The notes under the pieces are model-generated. The model saw nothing but the letters and a program-made list of their open reading frames with translations, searched no databases and was not told the DNA's origin. Both the position numbers and the translations under genes were made by a program. This document shows, piece after piece, positions 1 through 13,084 of a stretch of 13,084 nt of DNA. This DNA comes from a virus. The stretch covers positions 1 through 13,084 of IMG/VR virus record IMGVR_UViG_3300045988_063681, one strand, 5' to 3'. Position 1 is the stretch's first letter. Each line of letters starts with the position of its first letter.

Positions 1-222
1 AAACTTGGCAAGACAAACCTGTGAACAAATTGTTAACATTTCCCCAATCTGTTCATATTTCGTTCATAATTGTAAAACTGGCATGAATCTTGCTAGGCAA
101 CTATAACATTAAATTGTCTGACAATATCATATAAAGTCTGTCACTTATTCTGTTGACATTTAGTTCAAATGAACTATAATAGACTTATCAAATAAATCAA
201 GCAACAGCCATAAGGTAGGAGG
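1..222. repeat. Left inverted terminal repeat (ITR-L), 222 bp
   Basis: 1-222 is the reverse complement of 12863-13084, checked block by block, with one mismatch (A173 vs the equivalent G, C12912 on the + strand). The window begins 5'-AAA. Identity stops directly after the AGGAGG SD at 217-222. No ORF lies in 1-150. Confidence 0.95.
153..180 (+). promoter_or_regulatory. Early promoter inside ITR-L, sigma-A type
   Basis: TTGACA (153-158), 16-nt spacer, TATAAT (175-180). Predicted +1 is near 187. It is followed by a ~30-nt leader and AGGAGG (217-222). The palindrome AGTTCA-AA-TGAACT (162-175) fills the spacer. Confidence 0.7.
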
Positions 223-231
223 GTGAATGAT

Positions 232-474
232 ATGAGAAAAGGAATGATTTTAAATGGACGATATAGAGTATATGTTGGAAAAGAAATCATAACTATTGAA
301 ACAAGTTGGGGGTGTTCATACACACTTTATAAGGAGTATAATGGAACAAGATACTTTGCTGATGCTTCTGACGGGTTTGATGAAGTTGAGGAAATCAATG
401 CATCAAGTGATCAGGAAGCTATTGAGTTATTTAAAGAGATTATGAGATTAAAAGAGGATGAACAGGAGCAGTAA
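232..474 (+). CDS. Hypothetical early protein (80 aa, acidic C-terminus)
   Basis: The ORF track gives 223-474 with a GTG start. I prefer in-frame ATG232, 9 nt after AGGAGG 217-222, because GTG223 abuts the SD. It is the first gene after the ITR promoter. The C-terminal tail is acidic (...KEDEQEQ). I recognise no family. Confidence 0.6.
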   Translation: MRKGMILNGRYRVYVGKEIITIETSWGCSYTLYKEYNGTRYFADASDGFDEVEEINASSDQEAIELFKEIMRLKEDEQEQ

Positions 475-849
475 ATGAAATCAAAATACAAAAAAATTAA
501 GTACACAAACACCGGGGTAAAAGCCCCGGTAGTTATTATTAAAAAATCCAACCCAGATCTTAATAGGTCTGACATGTTAGAAGTTAACTACCCAGAAATG
601 ATAATAACTATACGTAGAATGTTGAGAAAAACTATGTACAATCGTGCAAAATCTTTAATAACTGTTGAATCAGATCATTTTATTGCTTCTTTTCATGTTT
701 ACGATACTATTAATGATGCAAGAGTTGTGTGTGAAAATCTTTACTTAATTATTAAAAAACCAGAATTAGATTTCCGCATAACAACTAGGGAATATGATAG
801 CATTTATGATTATATGAAGGAAGTGATATACAATGCCAAAGAATCCTAA
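475..849 (+). CDS. Hypothetical early protein (124 aa, very basic N-terminus)
   Basis: ATG475 immediately follows the TAA of the previous ORF, with AGGAG 7 nt upstream. The N-terminus MKSKYKKIKYTNTGVK...IIKK is lysine-rich. By position it corresponds to the phi29 early DNA-binding or SSB genes, but I recognise no sequence similarity. Confidence 0.55.
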   Translation: MKSKYKKIKYTNTGVKAPVVIIKKSNPDLNRSDMLEVNYPEMIITIRRMLRKTMYNRAKSLITVESDHFIASFHVYDTINDARVVCENLYLIIKKPELDFRITTREYDSIYDYMKEVIYNAKES

Positions 850-1453
850 AATTCCAACCACCTCAAAGGGTTTGAATACCAACCCAAAAATGCTTACTAC
901 GCTGGAAGCTTTACAGCTCCGCAGACAGCTTGCAAAACGCCTAAATCAGCGTATGCGTAGGTTAAAAGCAAAAGGTTTTGATGCAGAAGTCGGCGGAGCT
1001 TATGCAGACTATCAGGACTTGCTTGCAAGATTTTTCCCGGGTAGATCAACAATCCCGGAAAACTTGGAAAATGAAAAATACAAGGGATTGCCTAGAACTC
1101 AGGTAAAAGCCATACAAAAAATACTGAAAGAAAAAAGCAGCACTGTGCAAGGCTGGCGTGAGATCATAGATAAGCGCCAAAAGGTCCTCAGTGATAAATA
1201 TGGCATTACATTTAAGTCAAAAGCAGAAATGAAACTTTTTTTCAAGTCTGAGGTCTGGAAGTGGATGCAGACTTTTTATGACAGCAAGCAAACTATGAGG
1301 ATAATAAGTCATAAACTTGATAAATCTACAGTCAAAAAAATAATAGAGGACTTAGAGCAGTTCAGGGAGCGTACAGATGAGGAAATGGCTGATGTGATTG
1401 CGAAACGTCTTGGTTTTTCTGGCGAAGCAGAAGCTTTGAAGTATAGACCATAG
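833..1453 (+). CDS. Candidate terminal (priming) protein, 206 aa
   Basis: The ORF overlaps the upstream ORF by 17 nt and ends 15 nt before the polymerase start. The order terminal protein then polymerase is conserved in phi29, Cp-1 and PRD1. The protein is basic and predicted helical (RRQLAKRLNQRMRRLKAKG). The call rests on synteny only, because terminal proteins diverge beyond recognition. Confidence 0.45.
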   Translation: MPKNPKIPTTSKGLNTNPKMLTTLEALQLRRQLAKRLNQRMRRLKAKGFDAEVGGAYADYQDLLARFFPGRSTIPENLENEKYKGLPRTQVKAIQKILKEKSSTVQGWREIIDKRQKVLSDKYGITFKSKAEMKLFFKSEVWKWMQTFYDSKQTMRIISHKLDKSTVKKIIEDLEQFRERTDEEMADVIAKRLGFSGEAEALKYRP

Positions 1454-1468
1454 CAGGGAGGTAAAGTA

Positions 1469-3592
1469 ATGGTAGTCGCAGGATATCCGGTTATTTATTT
1501 CAAAAACTATGATTATATGCGACTGTTCAATGCTGATTTTATCCGGCGATCCAACGCAGGGCATTATCTAGGTGTCTATGAAAAAATAATAACTGTAGAT
1601 ACAGAAACTTTCGTTTATCTCAATAAAGATATCGGTTTTGTAACAGACTGGACAATCACCATAGAGGATGATTGCTGTATTTACGGCAATCATGTTTCTG
1701 ATCTGATTGATACGATAGACAGGATCTGTACAACTTTACATGCTGACGATAGCCACCTTGTGAGGTTTTATGTGCATAACTTCCCTTATGACTATGTGTT
1801 TCTCCGAAATCATTTTTTCCAAAAATGGGGGAACCCTGACAAATCATTAGCTGCTAAAACACATAAGTATATTTTTATGAAATGGACAGGTCAAGGCATT
1901 GAGTTCCGGGACAGCCTTATCTTGACACAGCGATCATTAGAGAAGTTGTGTAAAGACATGGGAACAACTGAAAAAGCTGTCGGAACATGGGACTATAAGA
2001 AATTCCGAACGCCAGCAAGTCCACGTACAGCAAAAGAAATAGCATACGTTTGCACAGATACAATCAGTCTATGCAAGGCATTACGCAAATACATAGATCA
2101 GAGAGGATTCAACGTGGCAAATTGTCCGTTGACAAATACAGGGTTTATCCGGATGAACGCCCGCAGGAGAGCAAGAAAAGACAAGAAATGGAGAAAGCAA
2201 TTTGAGCAAATGGCTCTGACGTTAGAACAGTATGACCAGATGCTTGATTGCTATCATGGTGGCTATACTCATGCAAACAGGTATTATGTTAACCAACTGA
2301 TAAAAGACCCTGTTGAGTGCTATGATTTTGTAAGCTCATACATTGCCTGGATGTGCTATTGTAAGTTTCCAATGACTAGGTTTTGTTATACTAACAGTAT
2401 CACATTAAAAGACATCATGGAGCTTAAGGAAGAGTATGCTTTTTCCGGCTATATAAGATTAAAAAATCTGAGACTGAAAAAAGACTGCCCTATGCCCCCG
2501 CTTGCTTTTTCAAAAGCAAAAGTTTGCATTTTTCCGGAAGCCAAAAGCAAAAAGGAACAGTTCCATGACAACTTGGATAATGGAAAGATCGTTAATGCTG
2601 ATCTTGTCATATATCCATTTACTGACCCGGATTTAGAGGTCATTCTGTCAACTTATGAATACGAGTGGGCTGACGTGTCAAAAGTCATGAGGGCTACAAA
2701 AGACTACTTGCCGCAGTGGTTTACTGATTACTTGATGGAATTATTTTTTAAAAAATGTACACTTAAGGGTTTGGATGAAGCAAACTACATGATATCAAAA
2801 GGTGAGTTAAATGGCATGTACGGAATGACTGTACAAAGAATTATACAGATTTTATGCACTGAGTTAATGGAGTCCGGAGAGTGGGAAGCAAAAGAACCGG
2901 AGGACAGAGAAAAGGAACTTGAAAAGTTTTATAAGAATAAGAATAGCTTTATGCCCTATCAGTGGGGTGTATGGATCACAGCGTATGCACAAGCTTATTT
3001 GTTCCGGTTGGGTTCCTGTTGCCGGAAGTGGTTATACTCTGACACAGATTCCGTAAAAGGGACAGATTGGGATCATGATAAACTGGATGAGTTTAATCAA
3101 TCCATCATTTGTATGTCACAAAAGAGAAACATTGGAGTGGTAGAGTATAAAGGAAAAACCTTTCGGCTTGGAATTGCTGAGTTTGATGGACTATATTCAG
3201 AGTTTAAAACGATGGGTAGCAAGCGTTATTGCTATAGATTGAAAAAAGATGAATCCTTGCATCTGACGGTCGCAGGAGTTCCAAAAGAGGGTGTCTATTG
3301 TCTTGATGATGAGATCACAAATTTTCGAAAAGGGTTTGTTTTCAAAAATGATTTGATCTTCCGCAGGAACTACCGCAGATCAAATGACTGGCAGGATCCC
3401 AAATGGAAGATGAAGACGGAATATATATTTCATGATGGTGTCAATGAATTAACAATTGACGGATGCAAGATTGAATATGCATGTGCCATACGCTTGAGTG
3501 ATACAGAGTATGAGCTAGATCACACAATTCCATATGACAAGGAAACAGGACTGCCGCTGCCGTTTGAGATGGAAGATACCGTATACGGATAA
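1469..3592 (+). CDS. Protein-primed family-B DNA polymerase (phi29 gp2-like), 707 aa
   Basis: SD GGGAGG lies upstream of ATG1469. Motifs found: ExoI VDTETF (D44 at 1598-1600); ExoII HNFPYDYVF; ExoIII YVCTDTISL; motif A YDFVSSY; motif B KGELNGMYG (Kx3NSxYG type); motif C YSDTDS (3035-3052); KxY motif SKRYCY. Confidence 0.95.
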   Translation: MVVAGYPVIYFKNYDYMRLFNADFIRRSNAGHYLGVYEKIITVDTETFVYLNKDIGFVTDWTITIEDDCCIYGNHVSDLIDTIDRICTTLHADDSHLVRFYVHNFPYDYVFLRNHFFQKWGNPDKSLAAKTHKYIFMKWTGQGIEFRDSLILTQRSLEKLCKDMGTTEKAVGTWDYKKFRTPASPRTAKEIAYVCTDTISLCKALRKYIDQRGFNVANCPLTNTGFIRMNARRRARKDKKWRKQFEQMALTLEQYDQMLDCYHGGYTHANRYYVNQLIKDPVECYDFVSSYIAWMCYCKFPMTRFCYTNSITLKDIMELKEEYAFSGYIRLKNLRLKKDCPMPPLAFSKAKVCIFPEAKSKKEQFHDNLDNGKIVNADLVIYPFTDPDLEVILSTYEYEWADVSKVMRATKDYLPQWFTDYLMELFFKKCTLKGLDEANYMISKGELNGMYGMTVQRIIQILCTELMESGEWEAKEPEDREKELEKFYKNKNSFMPYQWGVWITAYAQAYLFRLGSCCRKWLYSDTDSVKGTDWDHDKLDEFNQSIICMSQKRNIGVVEYKGKTFRLGIAEFDGLYSEFKTMGSKRYCYRLKKDESLHLTVAGVPKEGVYCLDDEITNFRKGFVFKNDLIFRRNYRRSNDWQDPKWKMKTEYIFHDGVNELTIDGCKIEYACAIRLSDTEYELDHTIPYDKETGLPLPFEMEDTVYG

Positions 3593-3615
3593 AATGTTAT
3601 AAATCTGTAATAGTT

Positions 3616-3643
3616 TTGTAACATAAATAATTTACAATATAAA
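3616..3643 (+). promoter_or_regulatory. Possible internal promoter for the micro-ORF/SpoVG/ATPase block
   Basis: TTGTAA (3616-3621), 16 nt, TATAAA (3638-3643), in the 67-nt gap after the polymerase stop. The -35 element is also one arm of an inverted repeat, TTGTAA-N10-TTACAA (3616-3637). The match to consensus is weak. Confidence 0.3.
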
Positions 3644-3659
3644 CAGGAGGTGTAAAACT

Positions 3660-3773
3660 ATGAAAAAATTCTGGAGGGAAAATAAAGAAGATTTAAGTAC
3701 CCTTTTCTGGACTTGCGTTACTTTTGCTTGCATGTTTGCAAGCTGTCAGGTATGGTTATTGTTAGGTGATTAA
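3660..3773 (+). CDS. Small hydrophobic protein, 37 aa (below the ORF-track cutoff)
   Basis: ATG3660 is 8 nt after AGGAGGTG (3645-3652). Hand translation gives MKKFWRENKEDLSTLFWTCVTFACMFASCQVWLLLGD, a charged N-terminus followed by one likely transmembrane segment. TAA is at 3771-3773. Confidence 0.5.
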   Translation: MKKFWRENKEDLSTLFWTCVTFACMFASCQVWLLLGD

Positions 3774-3948
3774 ATTAGTAGATTCAGCAAACAAAGATTT
3801 TAATAATGGATTTACTAGTTTATATGATTTGAAAATCTATGTATCAAAAGTATTGTTTTCCTATTTAGAGGATTTAGTATGTGAACCAGAAACATGGGAG
3901 GACAATATGTTTCGTCTGAATGAGTGGATGGATTCATTAAGACATTAA
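3766..3948 (+). CDS. Hypothetical protein, 60 aa
   Basis: Track ORF. GTG3766 is the first codon after an in-frame TAG and overlaps the stop of the preceding micro-ORF (GTGATTAA), so reinitiation is plausible. The SD is poor. I recognise no family. Confidence 0.35.
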   Translation: MIKLVDSANKDFNNGFTSLYDLKIYVSKVLFSYLEDLVCEPETWEDNMFRLNEWMDSLRH

Positions 3949-3962
3949 GGAGGTGAAGAAAA

Positions 3963-4100
3963 TTGGTTGATATGTCTGAAATCTATGAAACATTGCGGAC
4001 AAGCAGCCTGAGAAAAGTAACCTATGAAGATGATGAGATCACTATCGTAGCTTACAAGGTGGGAAAAATCATTAGAATTGATGTAAAGGAGATTAAATAA
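3963..4100 (+). CDS. Hypothetical protein, 45 aa (42 aa if ATG3972 is used)
   Basis: AAGGAGGTG (3948-3956) is followed 6 nt later by TTG3963, which is in frame with ATG3972. Hand translation gives (MVD)MSEIYETLRTSSLRKVTYEDDEITIVAYKVGKIIRIDVKEIK, with TAA at 4098-4100. It is preferred over the antisense track ORF 3945-4127, which has no SD. Confidence 0.5.
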   Translation: MVDMSEIYETLRTSSLRKVTYEDDEITIVAYKVGKIIRIDVKEIK

Positions 4101-4101
4101 A

Positions 4102-4401
4102 ATGTTGAAATCAAATGTAAAAATCACATGCAGAGCTTATAATGGAAACTCAAAAACAAAAGCTTTTATTGATCTGGAAATGGATGAGACCCTTGTAATT
4201 AAAGGACTTACATTGGTTGAGGGAAAAAATGGTCTGTTCCTGACATTCCCAAGCACAAAGGGAAAAAAGGGAAAATATTATAATTCCGTGTATTCAATTG
4301 ATAAAGAATGGAAAGAGTCTCTTCAGGATGCTTGCATCAAAAAATACAATGAATGTAACCCGGCTAAGCAGCCAACATCCTCTGGGGGTGGATTTCAATA
4401 A
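4102..4401 (+). CDS. spoVG: SpoVG-family DNA/RNA-binding protein, 99 aa
   Basis: KAFIDLEMDETLVIKGLTLVEGKNGLFLTFPSTKGKKGKYYNSVYSIDKEWKESLQDACIKKY aligns with the SpoVG core as I recall it ([43 protein letters not shown].HPIN....KIQDAVL.EY). AAGGAG lies upstream. Its stop overlaps the ATPase start (TAATG, 4399-4403). Confidence 0.85.
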   Translation: MLKSNVKITCRAYNGNSKTKAFIDLEMDETLVIKGLTLVEGKNGLFLTFPSTKGKKGKYYNSVYSIDKEWKESLQDACIKKYNECNPAKQPTSSGGGFQ

Positions 4402-5447
4402 TGAACATCTATGATAGAAATGGCTGGCTGGACGTTCCAAGGATCGTCCAGCTGGCTGATAAAAATAAAATTAACTTTATCTTTATCATTGGGGCACGAC
4501 GAACTGGAAAAACGTATGGTATTTTCCAGCACTTCATCAATGATATTTTTTCCAAAAATGAGAAGATCATTTACATGCGTCGGACCAAAGAGCAGCTAAC
4601 AAAAGTTTTTCTTCCGGAGTTTGATCCATGGCTGGACATAAACAAAGACATGAACAGATTTTTTCACTTCGAGAAACCAAGAGGTGAATACGGACGTATT
4701 AAAATAATGGAACAAACAGAGGATGAAGAAGTTTATAGAGGTGAGGCTTTTTGTCTTACTTCCATGCATAACAACCGTGGTTTCTCCGGATCTGATTTTT
4801 CGGAGGGGATTTATGATGAGTTTATTCCGGAGAAGATTGCCAAGTCAATCAGTGGGGAAGATGATGCTTTTTTGAACGCTGTCGAAACAATCTCTGCAAA
4901 CAGGGAGTTGCAAGGAAAGAAACCGTTCCGCTGGTGGTTGGCTTCCAACTCGAACACATTGGATAACGCAATTGTGCAGGCTTTCGGACTGTTGCCAATC
5001 TTGGAGCGAATGAAAAAGAACAAGCAGGAGTTTTCTTTACTCAAAGAGCGAGGAATCATACTTGTATTAATTAATGATTCACCAATTTCTGAGAAGAAGA
5101 AAAACACTGCCCTTTATCGTGCATTATCCAACGATACAGACTTTGCAAAGATGGCATTATCGAATGAATTTGCATATGATGATACCTCAGCTGTCAAATC
5201 AGAGGACATCCGGCAATACAAGCTAATTTGTGTGATCGGAAAAGTGGCTATTTATGAGCATAAGTCAAAGGCACACTTGTATGTGTCAGATCATATATCG
5301 GGATCTTGCAAGGATGTATTTGAAGATAGTCAGCATGGTAAAGATCAATTTAGGTGCTTTTATAGCTGGATTGAGAGCTATCGTCTGACAAATAGAATCA
5401 GCTACCAGAATATTTCGGTAAAATTCTATATTGACAAACTATTTTAA
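4401..5447 (+). CDS. DNA packaging (encapsidation) ATPase, phi29 gp16-like, 348 aa
   Basis: Walker A is IIGARRTGKTY (G31-T38, 4491-4514), followed by IIYMRRTKEQL; compare phi29 gp16 VIGARGIGKSY...FIYVRRYKPEL as recalled. Walker B is GIYDEFIPEK (phi29 IVFDEFIREK). WWLASNSN matches CICLSNA. The size matches gp16. Confidence 0.93.
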   Translation: MNIYDRNGWLDVPRIVQLADKNKINFIFIIGARRTGKTYGIFQHFINDIFSKNEKIIYMRRTKEQLTKVFLPEFDPWLDINKDMNRFFHFEKPRGEYGRIKIMEQTEDEEVYRGEAFCLTSMHNNRGFSGSDFSEGIYDEFIPEKIAKSISGEDDAFLNAVETISANRELQGKKPFRWWLASNSNTLDNAIVQAFGLLPILERMKKNKQEFSLLKERGIILVLINDSPISEKKKNTALYRALSNDTDFAKMALSNEFAYDDTSAVKSEDIRQYKLICVIGKVAIYEHKSKAHLYVSDHISGSCKDVFEDSQHGKDQFRCFYSWIESYRLTNRISYQNISVKFYIDKLF

Positions 5448-5459
5448 AAATAGTATATT
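5431..5459 (+). promoter_or_regulatory. Near-consensus promoter within the 3' end of the ATPase gene (candidate late or small-RNA promoter)
   Basis: TTGACA (5431-5436), 17 nt, TATATT (5454-5459). Predicted +1 is near 5466-5467. The spacer contains the 15-nt palindrome CTATTTTAAAAATAG (5439-5453). Confidence 0.55.
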
Positions 5460-5466
5460 TTATATA

Positions 5467-5544
5467 GGTCAACGTGGCTACATCGACCGTCGGAAGCGGA
5501 TGCCGTGGGATGATTACCCGGAAGCGTTGACCTATTTTAATTTT
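5467..5544 (+). ncRNA. Candidate structured RNA: GC-rich three-way junction closed by an 8-bp stem and followed by a U-tract
   Basis: GGTCAACG (5467-5474) is perfectly complementary to CGTTGACC (5525-5532), followed by TATTTTAATTTT (5533-5544). Hand folding gives two internal hairpins (about 5481-5502 and 5503-5521). 5467-5532 is 40/66 G+C by hand count within an AT-rich genome. It starts at the predicted +1 of the 5431 promoter. Function is unknown. Confidence 0.35.
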
Positions 5545-5577
5545 CACTTCCGGCAGAAAAGGAGAAAAAAGAAAAAA

Positions 5578-5892
5578 ATGAAAGTAGATCAGATTTTAGA
5601 ACTGGGAAAACTTGGATTTACGAAAAATGAAATTTTAGGGATTCTGAACGCCCAGAACATGACTGGGCTTAATCAGATCACAAGCTCACAGGGTACAGAA
5701 CAGATTGTAAATACTCCACTGAATCTGACAGCACAGACAGGACAGGATACAACCAATGCAGCATTGCTGACAGCAATCAATACTTTGACTGCTACGTTAC
5801 AGGCTGGGAACCTGTCAGCATCCGGAAAAACTGGAACTACTCAGCGTACTTCCGACAATGTGGCAGAAGATTTAATGAAACTCATGAACTAA
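5578..5892 (+). CDS. Putative scaffolding protein, 104 aa
   Basis: The track ORF 5431-5892 starts at a TTG inside the ATPase gene and reads through the structured region. I prefer ATG5578 (MKVDQILELGKLGF...) downstream of AAAGGAG, although the 13-nt spacing is long. It is a small helical T/Q-rich protein directly upstream of the capsid gene, like phi29 gp7. The call rests on position only. Confidence 0.5.
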   Translation: MKVDQILELGKLGFTKNEILGILNAQNMTGLNQITSSQGTEQIVNTPLNLTAQTGQDTTNAALLTAINTLTATLQAGNLSASGKTGTTQRTSDNVAEDLMKLMN

Positions 5893-5905
5893 GGAGGTGT
5901 AAATA

Positions 5906-7102
5906 ATGGCAAACAGTTTAGTAGTCCAGGATGCATATTTGATCATTAATGATCTGTACAAGATGGCTACCGGACGGGAGAATATCAAGGCAATAGATAC
6001 AAGTTCTTTTGTAGCTGTGGGTGAAACCATGCTTCGGACAGGTGTAGAACCTACACTGAAAGCACTCAGCCAGTGGTGTGGACGAACCTATTTTGAGATG
6101 GAAAAATACAGATCCGGAGTGTTCCGGTCAATCATTGAGAATAATGAACGCTGGGGAGCTATCACACGTGAGATCATTTCACTTCCGCTGGATGCAGAGG
6201 CATCACAGGATTGGAATACAGACTTGAATGATAAACAGCTTGCCGATGGTCAGTCAGTTGATATGTACAAAATCAACGCTCCAAAAGTAGTGGAGTTGAA
6301 ATTCTATGGTTCAAAAGTTTTACAGTCTCATATAACACGTTTTCGCGACCAGCTGGCACTTGCTTTTTCCAATGAAGCAGAGTTTCTTATGTTTGTAAGC
6401 TCATACATGACAGCATATTACAACGATATTGAATCCAGAAATGAAGCAAAGCGCAGACTGACGGTGCTTAACTTTATGGCGGGTATTTCCTCACTGGGAA
6501 CAAATGAGGTAGATCTTGTAAAGGAATACAATGCATCATACGGTACAGAACTTACAAGAAAGCAACTTTTAAGTCCTGAGCATCACAGGGATTTCATGGC
6601 TTTTGTAGTTGCAAGAATCAAGAAAGATTCAAAGAAGATGCAGGACAGAACTACAAAGTATCATATGAATCTGACTGGAAAAGATATTTTGAGATTCACT
6701 CGACCAGAGAATCAGAAGTTGCTCATGTACACAGATTTCTGGATTGATTCTGAAACACAGGTATTCCCGACAGTCTTTTCTGATGAGCAGCTTAAAATCG
6801 CTGACAAAGAGTTAGTAAACGGCTGGCAGGAGTTCGACAGTCCGGCTATCAATATCACACCTAACATCATTGGTGCTGACGGAGTTTCAAAAACAGCCAC
6901 GAAAGCGGTAACTCTGTCATATGTACTTGGTCTTTTATATGATCGTAGAGCTATGGGGGTTAATAATCAATGGATGTATTCTGCTGTTACCCCATTCAAT
7001 GCGGCAGGTGGCTATTACAATATCTTTGACCACTACCGCTTTAATGCATGGAACAACTTCACACACAATGCAATTCTTTATGTGCTGGGGGAGGGAGTAT
7101 AA
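5906..7102 (+). CDS. Major capsid protein, phi29 gp8-like (HK97 fold), 398 aa
   Basis: A strong SD, AAGGAGGTG, lies 7 nt upstream. EFLMFVSSYMTAYYNDIE resembles phi29 gp8 NFESFVSSIINAIYNSAE as recalled. Size and position (after scaffold, in the structural block) fit. Confidence 0.85.
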   Translation: MANSLVVQDAYLIINDLYKMATGRENIKAIDTSSFVAVGETMLRTGVEPTLKALSQWCGRTYFEMEKYRSGVFRSIIENNERWGAITREIISLPLDAEASQDWNTDLNDKQLADGQSVDMYKINAPKVVELKFYGSKVLQSHITRFRDQLALAFSNEAEFLMFVSSYMTAYYNDIESRNEAKRRLTVLNFMAGISSLGTNEVDLVKEYNASYGTELTRKQLLSPEHHRDFMAFVVARIKKDSKKMQDRTTKYHMNLTGKDILRFTRPENQKLLMYTDFWIDSETQVFPTVFSDEQLKIADKELVNGWQEFDSPAINITPNIIGADGVSKTATKAVTLSYVLGLLYDRRAMGVNNQWMYSAVTPFNAAGGYYNIFDHYRFNAWNNFTHNAILYVLGEGV

Positions 7103-7422
7103 TGTTAACAACAAACATAAAAGTACCTGCTGGTGGTTCAATAGTAGTTTCACTTCCTTTTGAATCTGTTTCGGTGAGAAGACTTTTAATGAATGTGGCA
7201 GCTACTGATGTAGTATTGTATTATGACAATATTCCCTTAATAAATACAAGTTTATACACCGCATTGTATGAATTAAAATTTGAATCGTATTATGGTTTCC
7301 CTGATGCATCACACTTTAAACTCGTAAATAACACAAACAATACTACATATGTGAAAGTATTAATTGATACAGTACCCAGCACACAAATTAATGAGAATTA
7401 TTTTACGGAGGTTACAATATGA
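7102..7422 (+). CDS. Hypothetical small structural protein, 106 aa (in the position of a head decoration or fibre protein)
   Basis: The track ORF starts at 7048, inside the capsid gene. ATG7102 overlaps the capsid stop (TAATG) with GGAGGGAG upstream. The sequence looks beta-rich and N/T-rich. The functional call rests only on synteny with phi29 gp8.5. Confidence 0.5.
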   Translation: MLTTNIKVPAGGSIVVSLPFESVSVRRLLMNVAATDVVLYYDNIPLINTSLYTALYELKFESYYGFPDASHFKLVNNTNNTTYVKVLIDTVPSTQINENYFTEVTI

Positions 7423-7643
7423 TGGACACATTTTTGACAATTCTTGGCAACTATGCTTTTCCAATCGTATGCTGTTGTGTTATGGCATACTTTGTCAAAT
7501 ACATGTACGATCAGACCAATCAGAGAGTTGACAAACTCAACGAGGAACACAAAAATGAAGTTGATACACTTTCTGAAGTTATTAAAAATAACACGCTTGC
7601 GATTGAAAAAATGAACTCTTTAATCGAACACTTGGGAAAGTAG
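7419..7643 (+). CDS. Holin, BhlA/UviB-like, 74 aa
   Basis: It has an N-terminal transmembrane segment (FLTILGNYAFPIVCCCVMAYFVKY) followed by a charged coiled-coil tail (DKLNEEHKNEVDTLSEVIKNNTLAIEKMNSLIEHL). This is the architecture of BhlA/UviB holin-like proteins. It lies directly upstream of the lysin. Confidence 0.7.
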   Translation: MMDTFLTILGNYAFPIVCCCVMAYFVKYMYDQTNQRVDKLNEEHKNEVDTLSEVIKNNTLAIEKMNSLIEHLGK

Positions 7644-7653
7644 GGATGATAAA

Positions 7654-8310
7654 ATGACAGCGAACGAACTTGTCGAAAATGCAAAGGAATTACTTGGAGT
7701 TAGATATGTGTGGGGTGGTTCAACCCCCACACAAGGACTTGATTGTTCTGGATTGCTTTACTGGATCCAGAAAAAAGCAGGGTCAAATGTTGGAAGACTG
7801 ACGGCATCAAGCTATTCAAAGCTTGGAACAAAGGTTCCGATTGGAGAGCAAAAAGTAGGTGATTTTCTTTTTTTCGGTACTCCAGTAACTCATTGTGCCA
7901 TTTTCATAGGATACGGATATATGATTGAAGCTAGAGGTGGCAGAAAAAACACTGCTGACAATCCAGGTGTTGGTGTAGTCAAAAGCCTTGTAACTCGTAG
8001 GTCTGACTTATCCTGCATCCGCAGGGTATGGGATGAATATAATGAAGCATTGACCTATTCGATTGGAAAAACATATACAACCAGAGTCGATCATTTACAT
8101 GTTCGTTATTCAGTATGGGGTCAGATCAAAGAATATGGACAGCTGACACGGGACGGCATGAAACATGCCTATTCTGATGGATGCTTGAAAAAAGGAACCA
8201 CAGTTACTGTAAAAGATATCAAAAAGGATGAAACCGGAGCAACGTGGGTCAAGATTCCATCTGGTTGGATCTGTGCCATCACGGCAAAAGGGAATGTTTA
8301 TTTATCATGA
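7654..8310 (+). CDS. Endolysin: NlpC/P60 cysteine endopeptidase with a C-terminal SH3-like wall-binding domain, 218 aa
   Basis: GVRYVWGGSTPTQGLDCSGLLYWI contains the catalytic Cys motif, and THCAIFIGYGYMIEA carries the His. The C-terminal segment KKGTTVTVKDIKKDETGATWVKIPSGWICA is typical of bacterial SH3 domains. Confidence 0.9.
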   Translation: MTANELVENAKELLGVRYVWGGSTPTQGLDCSGLLYWIQKKAGSNVGRLTASSYSKLGTKVPIGEQKVGDFLFFGTPVTHCAIFIGYGYMIEARGGRKNTADNPGVGVVKSLVTRRSDLSCIRRVWDEYNEALTYSIGKTYTTRVDHLHVRYSVWGQIKEYGQLTRDGMKHAYSDGCLKKGTTVTVKDIKKDETGATWVKIPSGWICAITAKGNVYLS

Positions 8311-9650
8311 CAGAGATTATCTTATTTCATTTTTCAAAACGAAAAAATAGTACAAAAAGACCAACAGAACAGGGAACTGCGGTTCCCTGTCTTTTAAAAT
8401 CAAATACAACTTTTCAAAATCCAGTGTTCAAATTAAAATTATCATTAGATAATGCATTGCAATATAATTATCTGAAATGGGCTGACCATTACTATTTTAT
8501 CAGCTCAACGGTATCATTAAATACTGACATGGTTGAGATTTCAGCGAGTGAGGATGTGCTGGCAACTTACCGGACAGAGATCAACAACTATACATGCTTC
8601 ATTGAGAGATCCAGTAAGCAGACTACGCTTGCAAATGATTCCATGTATATTCCGACAAATGACTGGGTTAGTCAGTCTACGATAGTCGGACAGCCGATAA
8701 ACACGTTTGTGAATGGGTATGCCAGAAACTATCTGTTGCGGACTATTTCACTAGATGGAATAAGCACTTATTATGTGACAGGGAGACAATTAGATGATCT
8801 GATGCAATTCATGTACACATTTGGATCAATTCCAGACGTGATTGAGTCAGCACTTACACGTTTACTTTTCAATCCATTTCAGTATATCGTAGATTTAAAA
8901 TGGCTACCATTCCGATTAAGCTCATTCTTGAATATTGCCGATAATATCAAGCTTGGCTACTGGGATAGCAATGTAACTGCGGCATTAATTAATGATGCAA
9001 CATGTACTTTTTCCTACGATTTAACCCTTGGGAATCCCTTATACGCTGATACTGATTTCAGATTTTACAATCCTGCTTTTTCAAAGTATAGTGTTAAGCT
9101 TCCATTTGTGGGGGTTATTCCTGTCAATCCAACAAAGACCCATAAGGGACAGTTAAAAGCTACTTATAACTTTGATGCTGTTTCCGGAATGGCTGACGTT
9201 TGGCTCACTTCCGGATCAGATGAATATGCACATTTCCAATGTCAGCTTGCCGTTCCAGTGCAAATTGGATATGCCACAACAAACATTGGTCACCTTACGA
9301 CAAGCTTGATAGACGTTGGCACAAGCCTTGCTTCTGGTAACCCGATTGGAGCTGTCACAAATACATTGGGTGCTTTCCAGAGTGTGACCTCACCAGAACC
9401 TAACATGGTAGGAACTGTTGGAAATATCAGCAATATACTTAATAACATGGATGCAAACAGTATCTGCTATGCCTGCACAAGCATAGATCCAGATAGAGCA
9501 AGTGAGGGTTATATAGATGGGACTATCCGGTCTATATCTGCACTGAGTGGTTTTGTAAAGTGCAGGAATGCATCTATCCAGATTGCAGGATTCGAGGGGG
9601 ATCAGGAACAGGTAAATAGTTATCTTAACAATGGATTCTATTTTGAATAA
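8307..9650 (+). CDS. Tail knob / major tail protein, phi29 gp9-like, 447 aa
   Basis: The track start at 8244 lies inside the lysin gene. ATG8307 overlaps the lysin stop (ATGA). The N-terminal region (MTEIILFHFSKRKNSTKRP...YNYLKWADHYYFISSTVSLNTDMVEISASEDVLATY) resembles the N-terminal domain of phi29 gp9-type tail proteins (...YIMFQNADYGNKWFYAFVTELEF...VHFEIDVLQTW, as recalled). It lies directly upstream of the portal, as gp9 does. Confidence 0.65.
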   Translation: MTEIILFHFSKRKNSTKRPTEQGTAVPCLLKSNTTFQNPVFKLKLSLDNALQYNYLKWADHYYFISSTVSLNTDMVEISASEDVLATYRTEINNYTCFIERSSKQTTLANDSMYIPTNDWVSQSTIVGQPINTFVNGYARNYLLRTISLDGISTYYVTGRQLDDLMQFMYTFGSIPDVIESALTRLLFNPFQYIVDLKWLPFRLSSFLNIADNIKLGYWDSNVTAALINDATCTFSYDLTLGNPLYADTDFRFYNPAFSKYSVKLPFVGVIPVNPTKTHKGQLKATYNFDAVSGMADVWLTSGSDEYAHFQCQLAVPVQIGYATTNIGHLTTSLIDVGTSLASGNPIGAVTNTLGAFQSVTSPEPNMVGTVGNISNILNNMDANSICYACTSIDPDRASEGYIDGTIRSISALSGFVKCRNASIQIAGFEGDQEQVNSYLNNGFYFE

Positions 9651-9665
9651 AGGAGGGATGAAAAC

Positions 9666-10586
9666 ATGTGGGCACCTATGAATTTTGACAAGATCAATAT
9701 ATGTACAAATTACTTCCAGCCGTCCGGAATAAAAGTAAGCAGCATTTATACAGATATTTTTGATCGCATGCTTTATGAGCGTGTATGCTCTGTACTTGAG
9801 ATTAAATATAACGCAAACATTGACATTGATTACTTCAAATATTGCTTACTGTTCGGTGGCTATATTTCCATCACAAAGACAGATCTTTATGGACATATTG
9901 CACAGTATCCAACATTGACAGGCTATAGCATTTATTTTAAGCCTACAAGAGCAAGTATACACACATATGCAAGCAATGCCACGATTGAGATTGAGGACAT
10001 GGAGATTGGAAAAGACTGTTCTGTCATCTATCTCAGACCTACATTCTGCGGAATTGGGGATATCATTGGATTTTATAGTTATAAATTAGCATTGGTAGCA
10101 AGTGCTTTTGACATGAATGTTTTTAATTCAAAACTTGCTTTTCTGATAGCTGCGAAAAACAAGGCGTCAGCTCAGACATTGAAAAAAATCTATGATAGCA
10201 TACAGGCTGGTAATCCAGTTGAAGCTTTTGACGTATCCATAAAAACAGAAGATAGACAAGGAAGCAAGCAGGATGCATGGGAGAGCTTCAACAAAGATTT
10301 AAAACAAAATTTCATAGCACCGGAGCTGATTGAGGTTTTTGAAAAACTTCTGGATCAGTTCGATACAGAGGTGGGGATCCCATCTGTCGGATCTGATAAA
10401 AAAGAACGTCTGAATGTACTTGAAACAAGCAAAAATGATGCAGAATCCGTGACACGGTTAACTACTTGGCTTGAGACAATGCAAGTAGGAGTGGATATGA
10501 CAAACAGGCTTTACCCGGAGATGAATCTGTCAATCAAGATCAGAAGCTATGAAACTGCGGAGGTGAAAAGTTATGGGACTTTATAA
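9666..10586 (+). CDS. Portal / upper collar connector, phi29 gp10-like, 306 aa
   Basis: AGGAGG lies upstream. KKERLNVLETSKNDAES matches phi29 gp10 KKERMVTDEVSSNDEQ; LKKIYDSIQAGNPVEAF matches LKQVYNQYEGNAPVIF; CSVIYLR matches GVVIYNN (as recalled). The size is close to gp10 (309 aa). Confidence 0.88.
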   Translation: MWAPMNFDKINICTNYFQPSGIKVSSIYTDIFDRMLYERVCSVLEIKYNANIDIDYFKYCLLFGGYISITKTDLYGHIAQYPTLTGYSIYFKPTRASIHTYASNATIEIEDMEIGKDCSVIYLRPTFCGIGDIIGFYSYKLALVASAFDMNVFNSKLAFLIAAKNKASAQTLKKIYDSIQAGNPVEAFDVSIKTEDRQGSKQDAWESFNKDLKQNFIAPELIEVFEKLLDQFDTEVGIPSVGSDKKERLNVLETSKNDAESVTRLTTWLETMQVGVDMTNRLYPEMNLSIKIRSYETAEVKSYGTL

Positions 10587-11262
10587 GGTTACGATAGCAG
10601 GACTTTATGAATGGAACAATAGTCTGTTTGACAAGATGGAGTTCCCAGAATCAGCATACAGACAGAACTTTATCGACAGCTTGCTTCTGTCATATGGCGA
10701 TTGTGAACCACTTTATCCGGACTGGGATTTCATGCATGAGAGTGCTATTCCAGCATGGAGTAGGAAATGGAAAAGCAGCATTGACAAGGTTTATAAAGTG
10801 TTAGACTTACTTAACTATGAACCAATTGAAAACTATGACCGCTATGAAGAATGGACAGATAGCCCGGATATGACACGAACAAGTCAAACTTACGGGCAGG
10901 ATGTAAACAGGGCAGAAGCTGGACAGGGAACCACTACGACCAACTCCGGGGCAGATACAGCTACCAATGATGTCAGTGCTTTTAATGATGCAAGCTATAG
11001 CCCAAACGAAAAAACAACTACAGAGTACGGCGGTAGCACAATGGTGCAAAGCTCCGGTGAAAATAAAAACACGTTTGAATATGGCAAGGGTGAAACAAGC
11101 AAAGAGACAGGACAGAATAAGCACTCCGGGCGTATTCATGGCAATATTGGTGTAACTACATCACAGCAAATGATCCAGTCAGAGCTTGAGCTGAGGAAGC
11201 AAAGCTTTATTGATTATTGCACCGGACTTTTTGCACAGGATCTTCTTTTATTAACTTATTAA
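10573..11262 (+). CDS. Lower collar protein, phi29 gp11-like, 229 aa
   Basis: GGAGGTG lies 7 nt upstream, and the ORF overlaps the portal gene by 14 nt. It sits directly after the portal, as gp11 does. The HGNIGVTTSQQMIQSELELR motif recurs in small-podovirus collar proteins as I recall. The central region is low-complexity and G/T/N-rich. Confidence 0.55.
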   Translation: MGLYKVTIAGLYEWNNSLFDKMEFPESAYRQNFIDSLLLSYGDCEPLYPDWDFMHESAIPAWSRKWKSSIDKVYKVLDLLNYEPIENYDRYEEWTDSPDMTRTSQTYGQDVNRAEAGQGTTTTNSGADTATNDVSAFNDASYSPNEKTTTEYGGSTMVQSSGENKNTFEYGKGETSKETGQNKHSGRIHGNIGVTTSQQMIQSELELRKQSFIDYCTGLFAQDLLLLTY

Positions 11263-11275
11263 GGAGGAATAAATT

Positions 11276-12532
11276 ATGTATTTCAGATACCCACACAGTG
11301 GATCACAAGATATGAACTTAGACTGGTTGCTTAAAGTTGGCAAACAGGCTGACAAGGATCATGAGGAATGGACGCATATAAAAGATACTGCACAAACTAT
11401 GATTGATGATGCAATTCAGAAAAGTCTGGATGATGGAGAGATCGGAAAAGTAGTAAATGATGCCACTACAAAAGTAATCAACGAACAGATTGACCCATTA
11501 AAAGAACAGGTTGGAACAAATACAACTGAAATAACAAAGTTACAAAAAAGAGAAGGACTTTTTGACCATTCCGGGAAAACTATCATCATCGGAGACAGCT
11601 ACACCGTTGGTTATACTCCGGAGGGTAACATAACGCCTTGGACTACTAACTTTATCAAGTATACCGGACTTGAGAATGTCACAATCTCCGCAAATGGTGG
11701 GGCATCTTTCTCAACAGCTGATAACTCATTTCTTATGCTGTTAAATGCCGTACCAGCTTCTAATGAGGTCAAACAGATCCTCGTTGTAGGTGGATTTAAT
11801 GAGTTCGGAACCTATTCAGAAATTGAAAATGGAATCAATAGTTTTATGGGAGTGGCAGAAGCGAGATTTCCGAACGCAAAAGTATTTTCTGCTATGGTTG
11901 CATGGTCAGTAGATCGGACGGATGATCCAACTGTACAGAATAGAATTAAGATTGCAAAATCTGTATATAACACCCAGAGAAAGAATTGGCGATATCTGGC
12001 AGGCTCAGACTATATTCTTCATGCTGATGGCTTTCTCGCTTCTGATGGCTTCCATCCAAACATAACCGGACAGGAGAGGCTTGCAAGCTATCTTGCTACC
12101 GCTGTTGAAACAGGGGCTTGCAGTCCATCATTTTATGAAGTCGTTGCAAACTTTGAAGCTGGTGACTTTGCACCTGCTCCGGGATCAAGTTGGACGTTTA
12201 TAAGTTCCTACAATGAGAGCACAAGCACTCTTATCTGGAGCAACTATGTTTGCCTCCCAAACAGCGGAACACTTACCTGTGATGGCACTGAGTATCGTTT
12301 GGGGCGTATTTTCTCAACGTCATTTATTGGAGATAATAACGGTTATACCTGTTATCCAACAACTGTGATCGTTAAGTCTGTCAGTGACTTCTATCATATC
12401 CCTGCACAGCTTAACTTCCGAGGTCGACATATTTATTTGAGCTTGTATGATGTTTCTGATGACAAGCACAACTACCGGACGTTGACAGAGGTCACACAGG
12501 TACAGATTCATAGAGGTTCTATCACGATGTAA
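11276..12532 (+). CDS. Tail appendage or fibre with an SGNH/GDSL hydrolase (esterase) domain, 418 aa
   Basis: AAGGAGG lies upstream. The N-terminal region includes a coiled-coil segment (INEQIDPLKEQVGTNTTEITKLQKR). SGNH blocks: I IIIGDSYTVGY (G106-D107-S108, 11591-11599); II SANGGASF; III VVGGFNEF; V SDGFHPN. There is a C-terminal domain of about 130 aa. It is the last gene of the structural operon, in the gp12 position. Confidence 0.8.
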   Translation: MYFRYPHSGSQDMNLDWLLKVGKQADKDHEEWTHIKDTAQTMIDDAIQKSLDDGEIGKVVNDATTKVINEQIDPLKEQVGTNTTEITKLQKREGLFDHSGKTIIIGDSYTVGYTPEGNITPWTTNFIKYTGLENVTISANGGASFSTADNSFLMLLNAVPASNEVKQILVVGGFNEFGTYSEIENGINSFMGVAEARFPNAKVFSAMVAWSVDRTDDPTVQNRIKIAKSVYNTQRKNWRYLAGSDYILHADGFLASDGFHPNITGQERLASYLATAVETGACSPSFYEVVANFEAGDFAPAPGSSWTFISSYNESTSTLIWSNYVCLPNSGTLTCDGTEYRLGRIFSTSFIGDNNGYTCYPTTVIVKSVSDFYHIPAQLNFRGRHIYLSLYDVSDDKHNYRTLTEVTQVQIHRGSITM

Positions 12533-12855
12533 AAATAAAAAAACGGTAGCCCAGCATTCGCTGGGCTACCGTTTTTATTTTTTGCATCTGCCAAAAGCTT
12601 TCTGAGTAGCTTGATTACTGACCAATTTGTTGATGCTTTGTAGATTTCAAGGCCTTTAAATGGGTGATAGTGAGCTACAGACCAATCTTTAAATCCTGTC
12701 AAAGCTATTTCGACATAATCTAAATAGCAAAGATAGTATACTGACATATATTCCTCATCTTCGGATAGTTCACAGATAAAGCCTTGCTTTTCAAGGTCTT
12801 TAGCAAGCTGTTTGAAATTCATTGTGTCCTTATTGTAATATTGATTGTATTTCAT
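12508..12855 (-). CDS. Hypothetical right-end early protein, 115 aa as read (folded part probably about 90 aa)
   Basis: ATG12855 is 7 nt after the ITR-borne AGGAGG and is driven by the ITR-R promoter. The last ~25 codons are encoded by the terminator hairpin, its U-tract and the 3' end of the convergent gene; the stop is at 12510-12508. I recognise no family. Confidence 0.6.
   Translation of the reverse strand: MKYNQYYNKDTMNFKQLAKDLEKQGFICELSEDEEYMSVYYLCYLDYVEIALTGFKDWSVAHYHPFKGLEIYKASTNWSVIKLLRKLLADAKNKNGSPANAGLPFFYFYIVIEPL
12539..12583. terminator. Bidirectional rho-independent terminator
   Basis: A 12-bp GC-rich stem, CGGTAGCCCAGC (12544-12555) pairing with GCTGGGCTACCG (12560-12571), has loop ATTC. 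It is extended by A5/T5 pairs, preceded by AAAAATAAAAAAA and followed by TTTTTATTTTTT, so a U-tract is present in both orientations. It lies between the convergent genes. Confidence 0.9.
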
Positions 12856-12862
12856 GTTTCAT

Positions 12863-13084
12863 CCTCCTACCTTATGGCTGTTGCTTGATTTATTTGATAA
12901 GTCTATTATAGCTCATTTGAACTAAATGTCAACAGAATAAGTGACAGACTTTATATGATATTGTCAGACAATTTAATGTTATAGTTGCCTAGCAAGATTC
13001 ATGCCAGTTTTACAATTATGAACGAAATATGAACAGATTGGGGAAATGTTAACAATTTGTTCACAGGTTTGTCTTGCCAAGTTT
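12863..13084. repeat. Right inverted terminal repeat (ITR-R), 222 bp
   Basis: Reverse complement of 1-222 with one mismatch at 12912. The window ends TTT-3'. CCTCCT at 12863-12868 is the SD for the leftward gene that starts at 12855. Confidence 0.95.
12905..12932 (-). promoter_or_regulatory. Early promoter inside ITR-R, mirror copy firing leftward
   Basis: On the minus strand, TTGACA (12932-12927), 16 nt, TATAAT (12910-12905). It is the same cassette as 153-180 except for the substitution at 12912 in the spacer. It drives the ORF at 12855..12508. Confidence 0.7.

Follow-up and report, generated by a model that had tools for sequence, protein, structure and literature searches.

Inverted terminal repeats carry promoter, leader and Shine-Dalgarno signals up to unrelated genes at both ends of a small phi29/Cp-1-like gut phage

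The inverted terminal repeat (ITR) of the phage DNA analysed here (13,084 nt, positions 1–13,084 of IMG/VR record IMGVR_UViG_3300045988_063681; hereafter the window) extends at each end through an inward-reading promoter, its leader and an AGGAGG Shine-Dalgarno (SD) sequence, and it stops within a few nucleotides of the start codons of two unrelated genes. Both copies of the repeat are probably active as immediate-early promoters, such that the ITR would serve as a replication origin and as a shared expression module whose inner edge is set by concerted evolution and by cassette exchange at the SD. An earlier note on this DNA had read promoter, leader and AGGAGG as parts of the repeat, had let the repeat end a few nucleotides from the ATGs, and had taken the genes behind the identical signals to be unrelated ORFs of 80 and 115 aa. 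Alignment of the arms confirmed these coordinates, sequence and relatives agree that each arm holds the full set of inward-reading signals, and the two products have no detectable protein similarity. The length given for the repeat required correction from 222 to 227 nt, since identity between the arms runs to nt 227.

Over these 227 nt the arms are 99% complementary. They disagree at nt 173 (A on the left, G on the right), which lies in the promoter spacer, and at nt 223 (G on the left, A on the right), just past AGGAGG. Identity is lost at a distance of 5 nt from ATG232 in the left arm and of 3 nt from ATG12855 in the right arm. The outermost 12 nt, AAACTTGGCAAG, carry an AAA reiteration; in L053 and L054 the termini read AAACTAGGCAAG (L numbers denote related contigs). 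Protein-primed initiation by sliding back requires a 3′-TTT reiteration (PMC4974454), and the terminal AAA would be the reiteration expected for this mode of initiation.

To judge from its gene content, gene layout and the relatives found, the window is the complete linear genome of a small protein-primed podovirus of the phi29/Cp-1 type from the human gut. The linear genome has an ITR and terminal base reiteration, the combination that marks phi29/Cp-1-like podoviruses, and phi29-type morphogenesis genes are present (gp16 ATPase, major capsid protein and connector: PF05894, PF25622, PF05352). All plus-strand genes lie between 232 and 12532, the minus strand carries one gene (12855–12508, termed R115), and a bidirectional terminator stands between the two sets (Table 1). 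A match to RF02621 at 12521–12590 (26.5 bits against a gathering score of 114) was rejected as the terminator hairpin. Among GenBank phage records, nucleotide similarity was found only to MT836115, an unannotated human-faecal scaffold (86% identity), and IMG/VR yielded 55 related contigs of ~12–13.8 kb. The nearest isolates by PolB, at ~30% identity, are Clostridium phage HM2 (32%) and Amedibacillus phages AD70P2/P3. Pfam and PHROG returned no family matches for A80 or B124, or for E60, D70, F9 and u13, which are small genes of the relatives.

R115, the gene behind the right-hand signals, is conserved and adjoins the right arm in 41 contig copies. Its homologues make up 120 database clusters, all from the same ~13-kb phage clade and none of them annotated; there was no Pfam or PHROG match, and an AF2 model (alpha-beta5-alpha, pLDDT 71.7) gave no significant fold match in the PDB (best E 0.34). 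Nearly all homologues are 91–92 aa long and end ...LLIDAK. The R115 of the window, whose protein is identical on 4 contigs, has lost this stop and reads through the terminator to a stop ~20 nt past the T-run, so that terminated transcripts would carry no stop codon.

Table 1. Positions of the terminal repeats, their internal elements and the main genes in the window.
Feature	Position	Strand	Remarks
Left ITR arm	1–227	+	227 nt; 2 mismatches against the right arm
Right ITR arm	12858–13084	−	reverse complement of 1–227
Genome terminus	1–12	+	AAACTTGGCAAG; terminal AAA reiteration
Direct repeats, 11 nt	50–72	+	TGTTCATATTTC / GTTCATAATTG; outer, origin half of the ITR
Palindrome (6-1-6)	113–125	+	ATTGTCTGACAAT; centre ~−68 from the predicted start; mirror copy 12960–12972
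GTCTGTC	137–143	+	GTCnGAC dyad in several relatives
Left early promoter	153–180	+	TTGACA-16-TATAAT; inward-reading
Right early promoter	12905–12932	−	TTGACA-16-TATAAT; inward-reading
Spacer dyad (7-2-7)	163–178	+	TAGTTCA-AA-TGAACTA; perfect on the left arm, broken on the right arm by A173G
Predicted leader	187–231	+	45 nt
Shine-Dalgarno AGGAGG	217–222	+	12863–12868 on the right arm; last conserved ITR element
A80	232–474	+	80 aa; variable-slot gene at the left ITR; ~17 relatives, left end only
B124	475–849	+	first conserved core gene of the left operon; TAAATG stop/start overlap with A80
Putative terminal protein (TP) gene	833–1453	+	directly upstream of PolB, the usual TP position; no family match
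PolB, protein-primed-type family-B	1469–3592	+	PF03175 DNA_pol_B_2, E 3.7e-12; PHROG 1907, E 1.8e-50
gp16-like packaging ATPase	4401–5447	+	Pfam/PHROG
phi29-type major capsid protein	5906–7102	+	Pfam/PHROG
NlpC/P60 lysin	7654–8310	+	family match
GP10 connector	9666–10586	+	family match
R115	12508–12855	−	115 aa; conserved gene behind the right ITR signals
Bidirectional intrinsic terminator	12539–12576	.	17-bp stem; ends the plus-strand gene set and the short right-end transcript

The two promoters are the only 12/12 matches to the promoter sequence in the window, where 0.01 would be expected, and two or more such matches occurred in 0 of 200 shuffles. Conservation was assessed by aligning 19 full-length arms of different genomes, two of them from relatives with no more than 68% PolB identity. 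The −35 element is invariant in these 19 arms, as are T175, A176 and T180 of the −10 element and G218–G222 of the SD. The leader between the −10 and the SD is variable and falls into two main sequence types, and the sequence of the promoter spacer varies too. The predicted start of the leader, placed from the −10, lies near an invariant A187. No stable structure was predicted in the leader (z = 0.04) and the ITR had no Rfam match, ruling out a structured leader or riboswitch; an unstructured leader would leave the SD accessible.

Several further elements of the ITR could be sites of regulation. Exact copies of the palindrome ATTGTCTGACAAT are confined to the two arms; T115–A126 (TGTCTGACAATA) is nearly all invariant in the 19 arms, A113–T114 not fully, and the palindrome is a candidate regulator-binding site. 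A 15-nt duplication in L004 has produced a second copy of it. A further copy with 2 mismatches at 5380–5392, upstream of an internal promoter, was not above chance (expected 1.15) and was discarded. The sequence at 137–143 is represented by GTCCGAC, GTCTGAC or GTCAGAC in L004, L026, L039 and L053 and is possibly a second operator half. The spacer dyad may likewise be an operator; in L020 it reads TAGTCCA-AT-TGGACTA, a compensatory change that preserves pairing. Farther out, the 11-nt repeat TGTTCATATTT(C/T) is present in 2–3 copies among relatives, with an extra copy in L026, L034, L044 and L020. A SpoVG-like protein (PF04026, E 8e-18; 4102–4401, +) is encoded just upstream of the packaging ATPase gene; as a member of a family that binds nucleic acids, it is a candidate for a regulator acting at the ITR dyads. 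Although these promoter dyads are present, no HTH (Aca-type) repressor domain was found in the proteins scanned.

The earlier note had proposed that ITR boundaries be compared in related genomes, and this was done for 37 related contigs in which a terminal inverted repeat could be detected at both ends. The boundary keeps its position at the SD and ATG in 27 of the 37, in addition to the window, and these include L053 and L054, the relatives with 68% PolB identity. In the 27 it falls 0–19 nt after the SD core and between −10 and +11 nt from the first ATG, and the genes that adjoin it are of at least 8 kinds on the left and 4 on the right. The other 10 relatives are off-pattern, some of them probably through mis-assembly (a repeat of 1430 nt in L040 and one of 557 nt in L002). 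Because many of the relatives are close kin (92–96% PolB identity) they are not independent, although their junction sequences nonetheless differ. The same junction position beside many genes, with spacers that differ, points to many separate junction events. For most of the relatives, which were assembled from metagenomes, one collapsed assembly-graph node may have given rise to both ITR copies, and the 100% identity of their arms therefore says little in favour of homogenisation.

Gene order in the relatives runs from the left ITR through a slot of 0–2 small genes to B124, the putative TP gene, PolB and onward to a 418-aa gene, followed by the terminator, R115, a second slot and the right ITR. 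The left slot is either empty or occupied by A80, D70, E60, F9, T60 or a 255-aa PAPS-reductase-domain protein; the right slot is empty or contains E60, T60, both E60 and T60, or u13. The PAPS-reductase-domain protein (PF01507, E 1.3e-7; 231–255 aa) was observed in the left slot of L009, L011 and L025 (86–853 in L011).

Comparison of the slots indicated that the same genes occur at either end. Of 11 genomes with E60, 4 have it on the left and 7 on the right, and the right end is also where T60 lies in 8 of 9. E60 proteins from opposite ends share 98% identity between L017 (left) and L052 (right) and 95% between L041 (left) and L011 (right). Both E60 and T60 almost always end in TAGGAGG, which merges their stop codon with the SD of the following gene, and the ITR's own AGGAGG precedes them; the left-only genes A80 and D70 end in TAAATG, overlapping the B124 start. 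Enlarged ITRs were found in L013 (1–334), L017 (~1–487, at least 487 nt) and L020 (1–442 nt). All three carry E60 or T60, whole or as a remnant, at the two ends, and each time the enlarged ITR stops at 'aggagg|', the SD of the gene that follows. Thus, the boundary shifts with a gene copied to both ends and looks more like a movable limit of homology than a fixed design, one that tends to be reset at an SD. In L008, a second copy of B124 stands at the right end and is 80% identical to the left copy.

These SD-anchored junctions may arise either because recombination or template switching uses the SD as microhomology, or because only such junctions stay expressible; selection to keep one SD could explain them without SD-mediated recombination. 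No integrase or recombinase domain was found in any scanned ORF, and the cassettes are bounded by AGGAGG only. The likeness to an integron-like platform is functional, in that one promoter serves swappable cassettes, here without an integrase or recombinase domain.

T60 is an acidic protein of ~62 aa whose gene adjoins the ITR in L028 (297–485 from the right end), L043, L046, L032, L037, L021, L035 and L020. All 7 distinct members matched the Pfam family AcrIC5 (PF22147) above the curated cut-off (best E 2.6e-9), and T60 gave a weak alignment to PDB 7yhr (AcrIC5; E 0.62). Membership of T60 in the AcrIC5 family would fit a slot that serves anti-defence genes expressed immediate-early. No T60 gene is present in the window, where neither A80 nor R115 has a family match. 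Of an acr-aca type anti-defence operon, which joins a strong promoter and a palindromic operator to an Acr gene and an HTH Aca repressor, the anti-CRISPR-family gene directly behind the promoter is seen only in relatives. A more ambitious extension, which we regard as tentative and rather doubtful, is that the ITR and its terminal SD form a two-ended capture-and-express platform. AGGAGG-bounded cassettes would move between the ends through recombination or template switching at the SD, the ITR would change in whole-gene steps, and whichever end enters the cell first would deliver anti-defence expression.

Shortened repeats were also found. At the right ends of L018, L026 and L050, R115 is deleted and an ITR fragment is fused to the terminator region, the trimmed ITRs ending at window-equivalent nt 114, 106 and 181, respectively, through three different junctions. 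These right ends imply that promoter half and origin half of the ITR can be separated. If the trimmed contigs are genuine, the origin would need at most ~106 nt and the promoter half would be dispensable at the right end; if L018, L026 and L050 are viable phages, both the right promoter and R115 would be dispensable.

The suggestion that this arrangement was an undescribed design did not withstand comparison with known phages: the same layout is present in Cp-1 and asccphi28, and HM2 and MT835998 are similar. For Cp-1 and asccphi28, the ITR promoters are those annotated in the GenBank records, and full-text literature searches found no paper discussing ITR-embedded promoters in phages. Cp-1 (Z47794) is, like the window, a protein-primed podovirus with replication genes reading inward from the left and small genes from the right. 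Its ITR is annotated as 1–236 (236 bp), with promoter signals at mirrored positions on both ends. When the Cp-1 ends were aligned, inverted homology extended to nt 352 (1–352 and 18992–19343; 97.7% overall, 8 mismatches beyond 236), being perfect only to nt 236 and ~90% over nt 237–352. Within the Cp-1 homology lie two tandem TTGACA-17-TATAAT promoters, against one per arm in the window. The homology breaks off ~8 nt short of the RBS of two unrelated genes, orf1 (ATG at nt 376) and orfa (ATG at 375 nt, counted from the right end), so that each Cp-1 arm has its own SD. The Cp-1 terminus opens with AAA, as does that of the window, but the ITR sequences lack similarity.

Lactococcus phage asccphi28 (EU438902) has a 577-bp ITR with putative inward promoters P2/P7 annotated in both copies, and imperfect homology continues to nt 609, reaching an SD-like GAAAGTGAGA just before the first ATGs. 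Its ITR differs from that of the window in being much longer and in having annotated outward promoters P1/P8 and terminators, and structural genes read from its right end. In Clostridium phage HM2 (LT600745), an ITR of ~170 nt carries an inward TTGACA-17-GATAAT at both ends and stops right after the −10, leaving leader and SD arm-specific. The repeat of the gut scaffold MT835998 covers a promoter-like site, leader, SD and the first three codons. In phi29, the very early promoter C2 reads inward near the right end, and origin and early transcription are physically coupled (PMC4974454). Since the phi29 ITR is only 6 bp long, the end-proximal promoters of this phage are unrelated at its two ends. 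The layout is absent from PRD1 (110-nt ITR), AD70P2 (55-nt ITR), astrithr (18-nt ITR), MT836125 and MT835901. In adenoviruses, poxviruses and linear Streptomyces replicons, too, the ITRs hold transcription signals or whole genes besides origin functions, and their boundaries move as genes are copied between ends; these systems are eukaryotic or actinobacterial, with other replication proteins and promoter types, and serve as analogies only. From this comparison the architecture recurs among long-ITR protein-primed phages without being universal, and it was already annotated in records of 1996 and 2008. The clade of the window is a case with the SD itself inside the repeat and is perhaps the cleanest example of a known architecture.

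We propose that the ITR is composed of two modules. The outer ~110 bp would constitute the replication-origin module, comprising the AAA reiteration, a conserved terminal block and the 11-nt repeats, and the inner ~115 bp would constitute the shared immediate-early expression module, comprising the dyads, the sigma-A promoter, the unstructured 45-nt leader and AGGAGG. According to the model both promoters would fire, the left copy driving A80, B124, the putative TP gene, PolB and downstream genes, and the right copy driving R115 as far as the bidirectional terminator. The ITR would end in the spacer between SD and ATG because the two ends share all sequence upstream of the first codon. Sequence correction from end to end, acting during replication or repair, would keep the shared stretch nearly identical, with identity decaying toward the inner edge. 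Mismatches between arms are indeed concentrated near the inner edge, both in the window (173, 223) and in Cp-1 (237–352), asccphi28 (578–609) and HM2, as might be expected from end-initiated correction with variable tract length. The genes adjoining the ITR would form a variable slot, and their cassettes would be exchanged by recombination at or next to the SD, which may provide the microhomology for crossover.

Long repeats at contig ends, or the position at which they stop, can be assembly artefacts generated by a fold-back or a graph-collapsed repeat, and the implausible repeats of L040 and L002, both 100% identical between arms, speak for such a reading. The arms of the window, however, differ at two positions, and the independent ENA/MEGAHIT contig L074 matches the window without a difference over 10,577 nt, which take in an identical right arm with its arm-specific bases. 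The terminal 12-mer opens at least 15 related contigs, and Cp-1, asccphi28 and HM2, which are isolated and finished phages, show the same layout. Thus, we take the termini to be true genome ends and no assembly duplication, and the artefact reading, rejected on the L074 match and the shared termini, is extremely improbable. For a genuine ITR it could still be that only the left copy matters, its promoter, leader and SD having evolved for the replication operon, while the right copy is a passenger of terminal correction whose genes are expressed opportunistically. This would account for the absence of R115 and of part or all of the right promoter half from L018, L026 and L050, for an R115 without recognisable function, and for an R115 ORF in the window that lacks the usual stop and continues across the terminator. 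We nevertheless consider it unlikely, given that R115 is maintained beside the right arm across so many contig copies and database clusters, and that genes stand behind both arms in Cp-1, asccphi28, HM2 and MT835998 too. Moreover, the preference of AcrIC5-like T60 (8/9) and of E60 (7/11) for the right end makes the right signals the usual expression site for accessory genes.

Alternatively, the inner half of the ITR might be mainly a replication element, concerned with nucleation of a p6-like protein or with transcriptional activation of the origin and not with gene expression. The precedent is p6 of phi29: nucleating 46–125 bp from the genome ends, this protein stimulates initiation and also silences C2, a very early promoter (PMC4974454). 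The dyads and 11-nt repeats of the ITR could be protein-binding sites of this kind; no p6 homologue was identified in the window. Against this reading, the TTGACA/TATAAT match is perfect, correctly spaced and hardly expected by chance, and an SD and an ORF follow the promoter at the proper distance in both arms and in every relative. Right-end variants with only ~106–114 nt of ITR further suggest that the origin needs no inner half. We consider a mainly replicative inner half quite improbable, although replication and expression roles are not mutually exclusive.

In long-ITR protein-primed phages, the terminal repeat would then be an origin and an immediate-early control region duplicated at both ends. 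To this the clade comparison adds an inner ITR edge that is a recombination-prone slot, in which accessory genes, including one of an anti-CRISPR family, are swapped between ends under a ready-made promoter and SD. Current understanding of these phages is unchanged, and the cassette swapping and ITR expansion are the most interesting by-product of the analysis. The results may be of use in annotating the many ~13-kb phi29-like genomes from the gut, in which early and anti-defence genes can be sought beside the ITR, and in designing protein-primed linear replicons or vectors that would draw both replication and expression signals from a 227-bp end.

Three observations were made elsewhere in the window. 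A GC-rich hairpin of 8 bp (ACCGGGGTAAAAGCCCCGGT; 511–530, +) with a weak T-tail lies within the 5′ part of B124 and may attenuate the left early transcript. The last plus-strand gene (11276–12532, +; 418 aa) gave a weak GDSL-lipase/acylhydrolase match (28.6 bits against a cut-off of 32.9), and its product may be a tail-associated esterase. Finally, the 130-nt gap after the packaging ATPase gene (5431–5545, +) contains an 11/12 promoter match, TTGACA-17-TATATT, at 5431–5459, followed by a conserved candidate RNA of ~70 nt (~5465–5534) with a three-way junction and then a U-rich tail. The candidate had no match in Rfam, pRNA included; three of its base pairs show compensatory double changes across 14 relatives, and it may be the pRNA of this clade.
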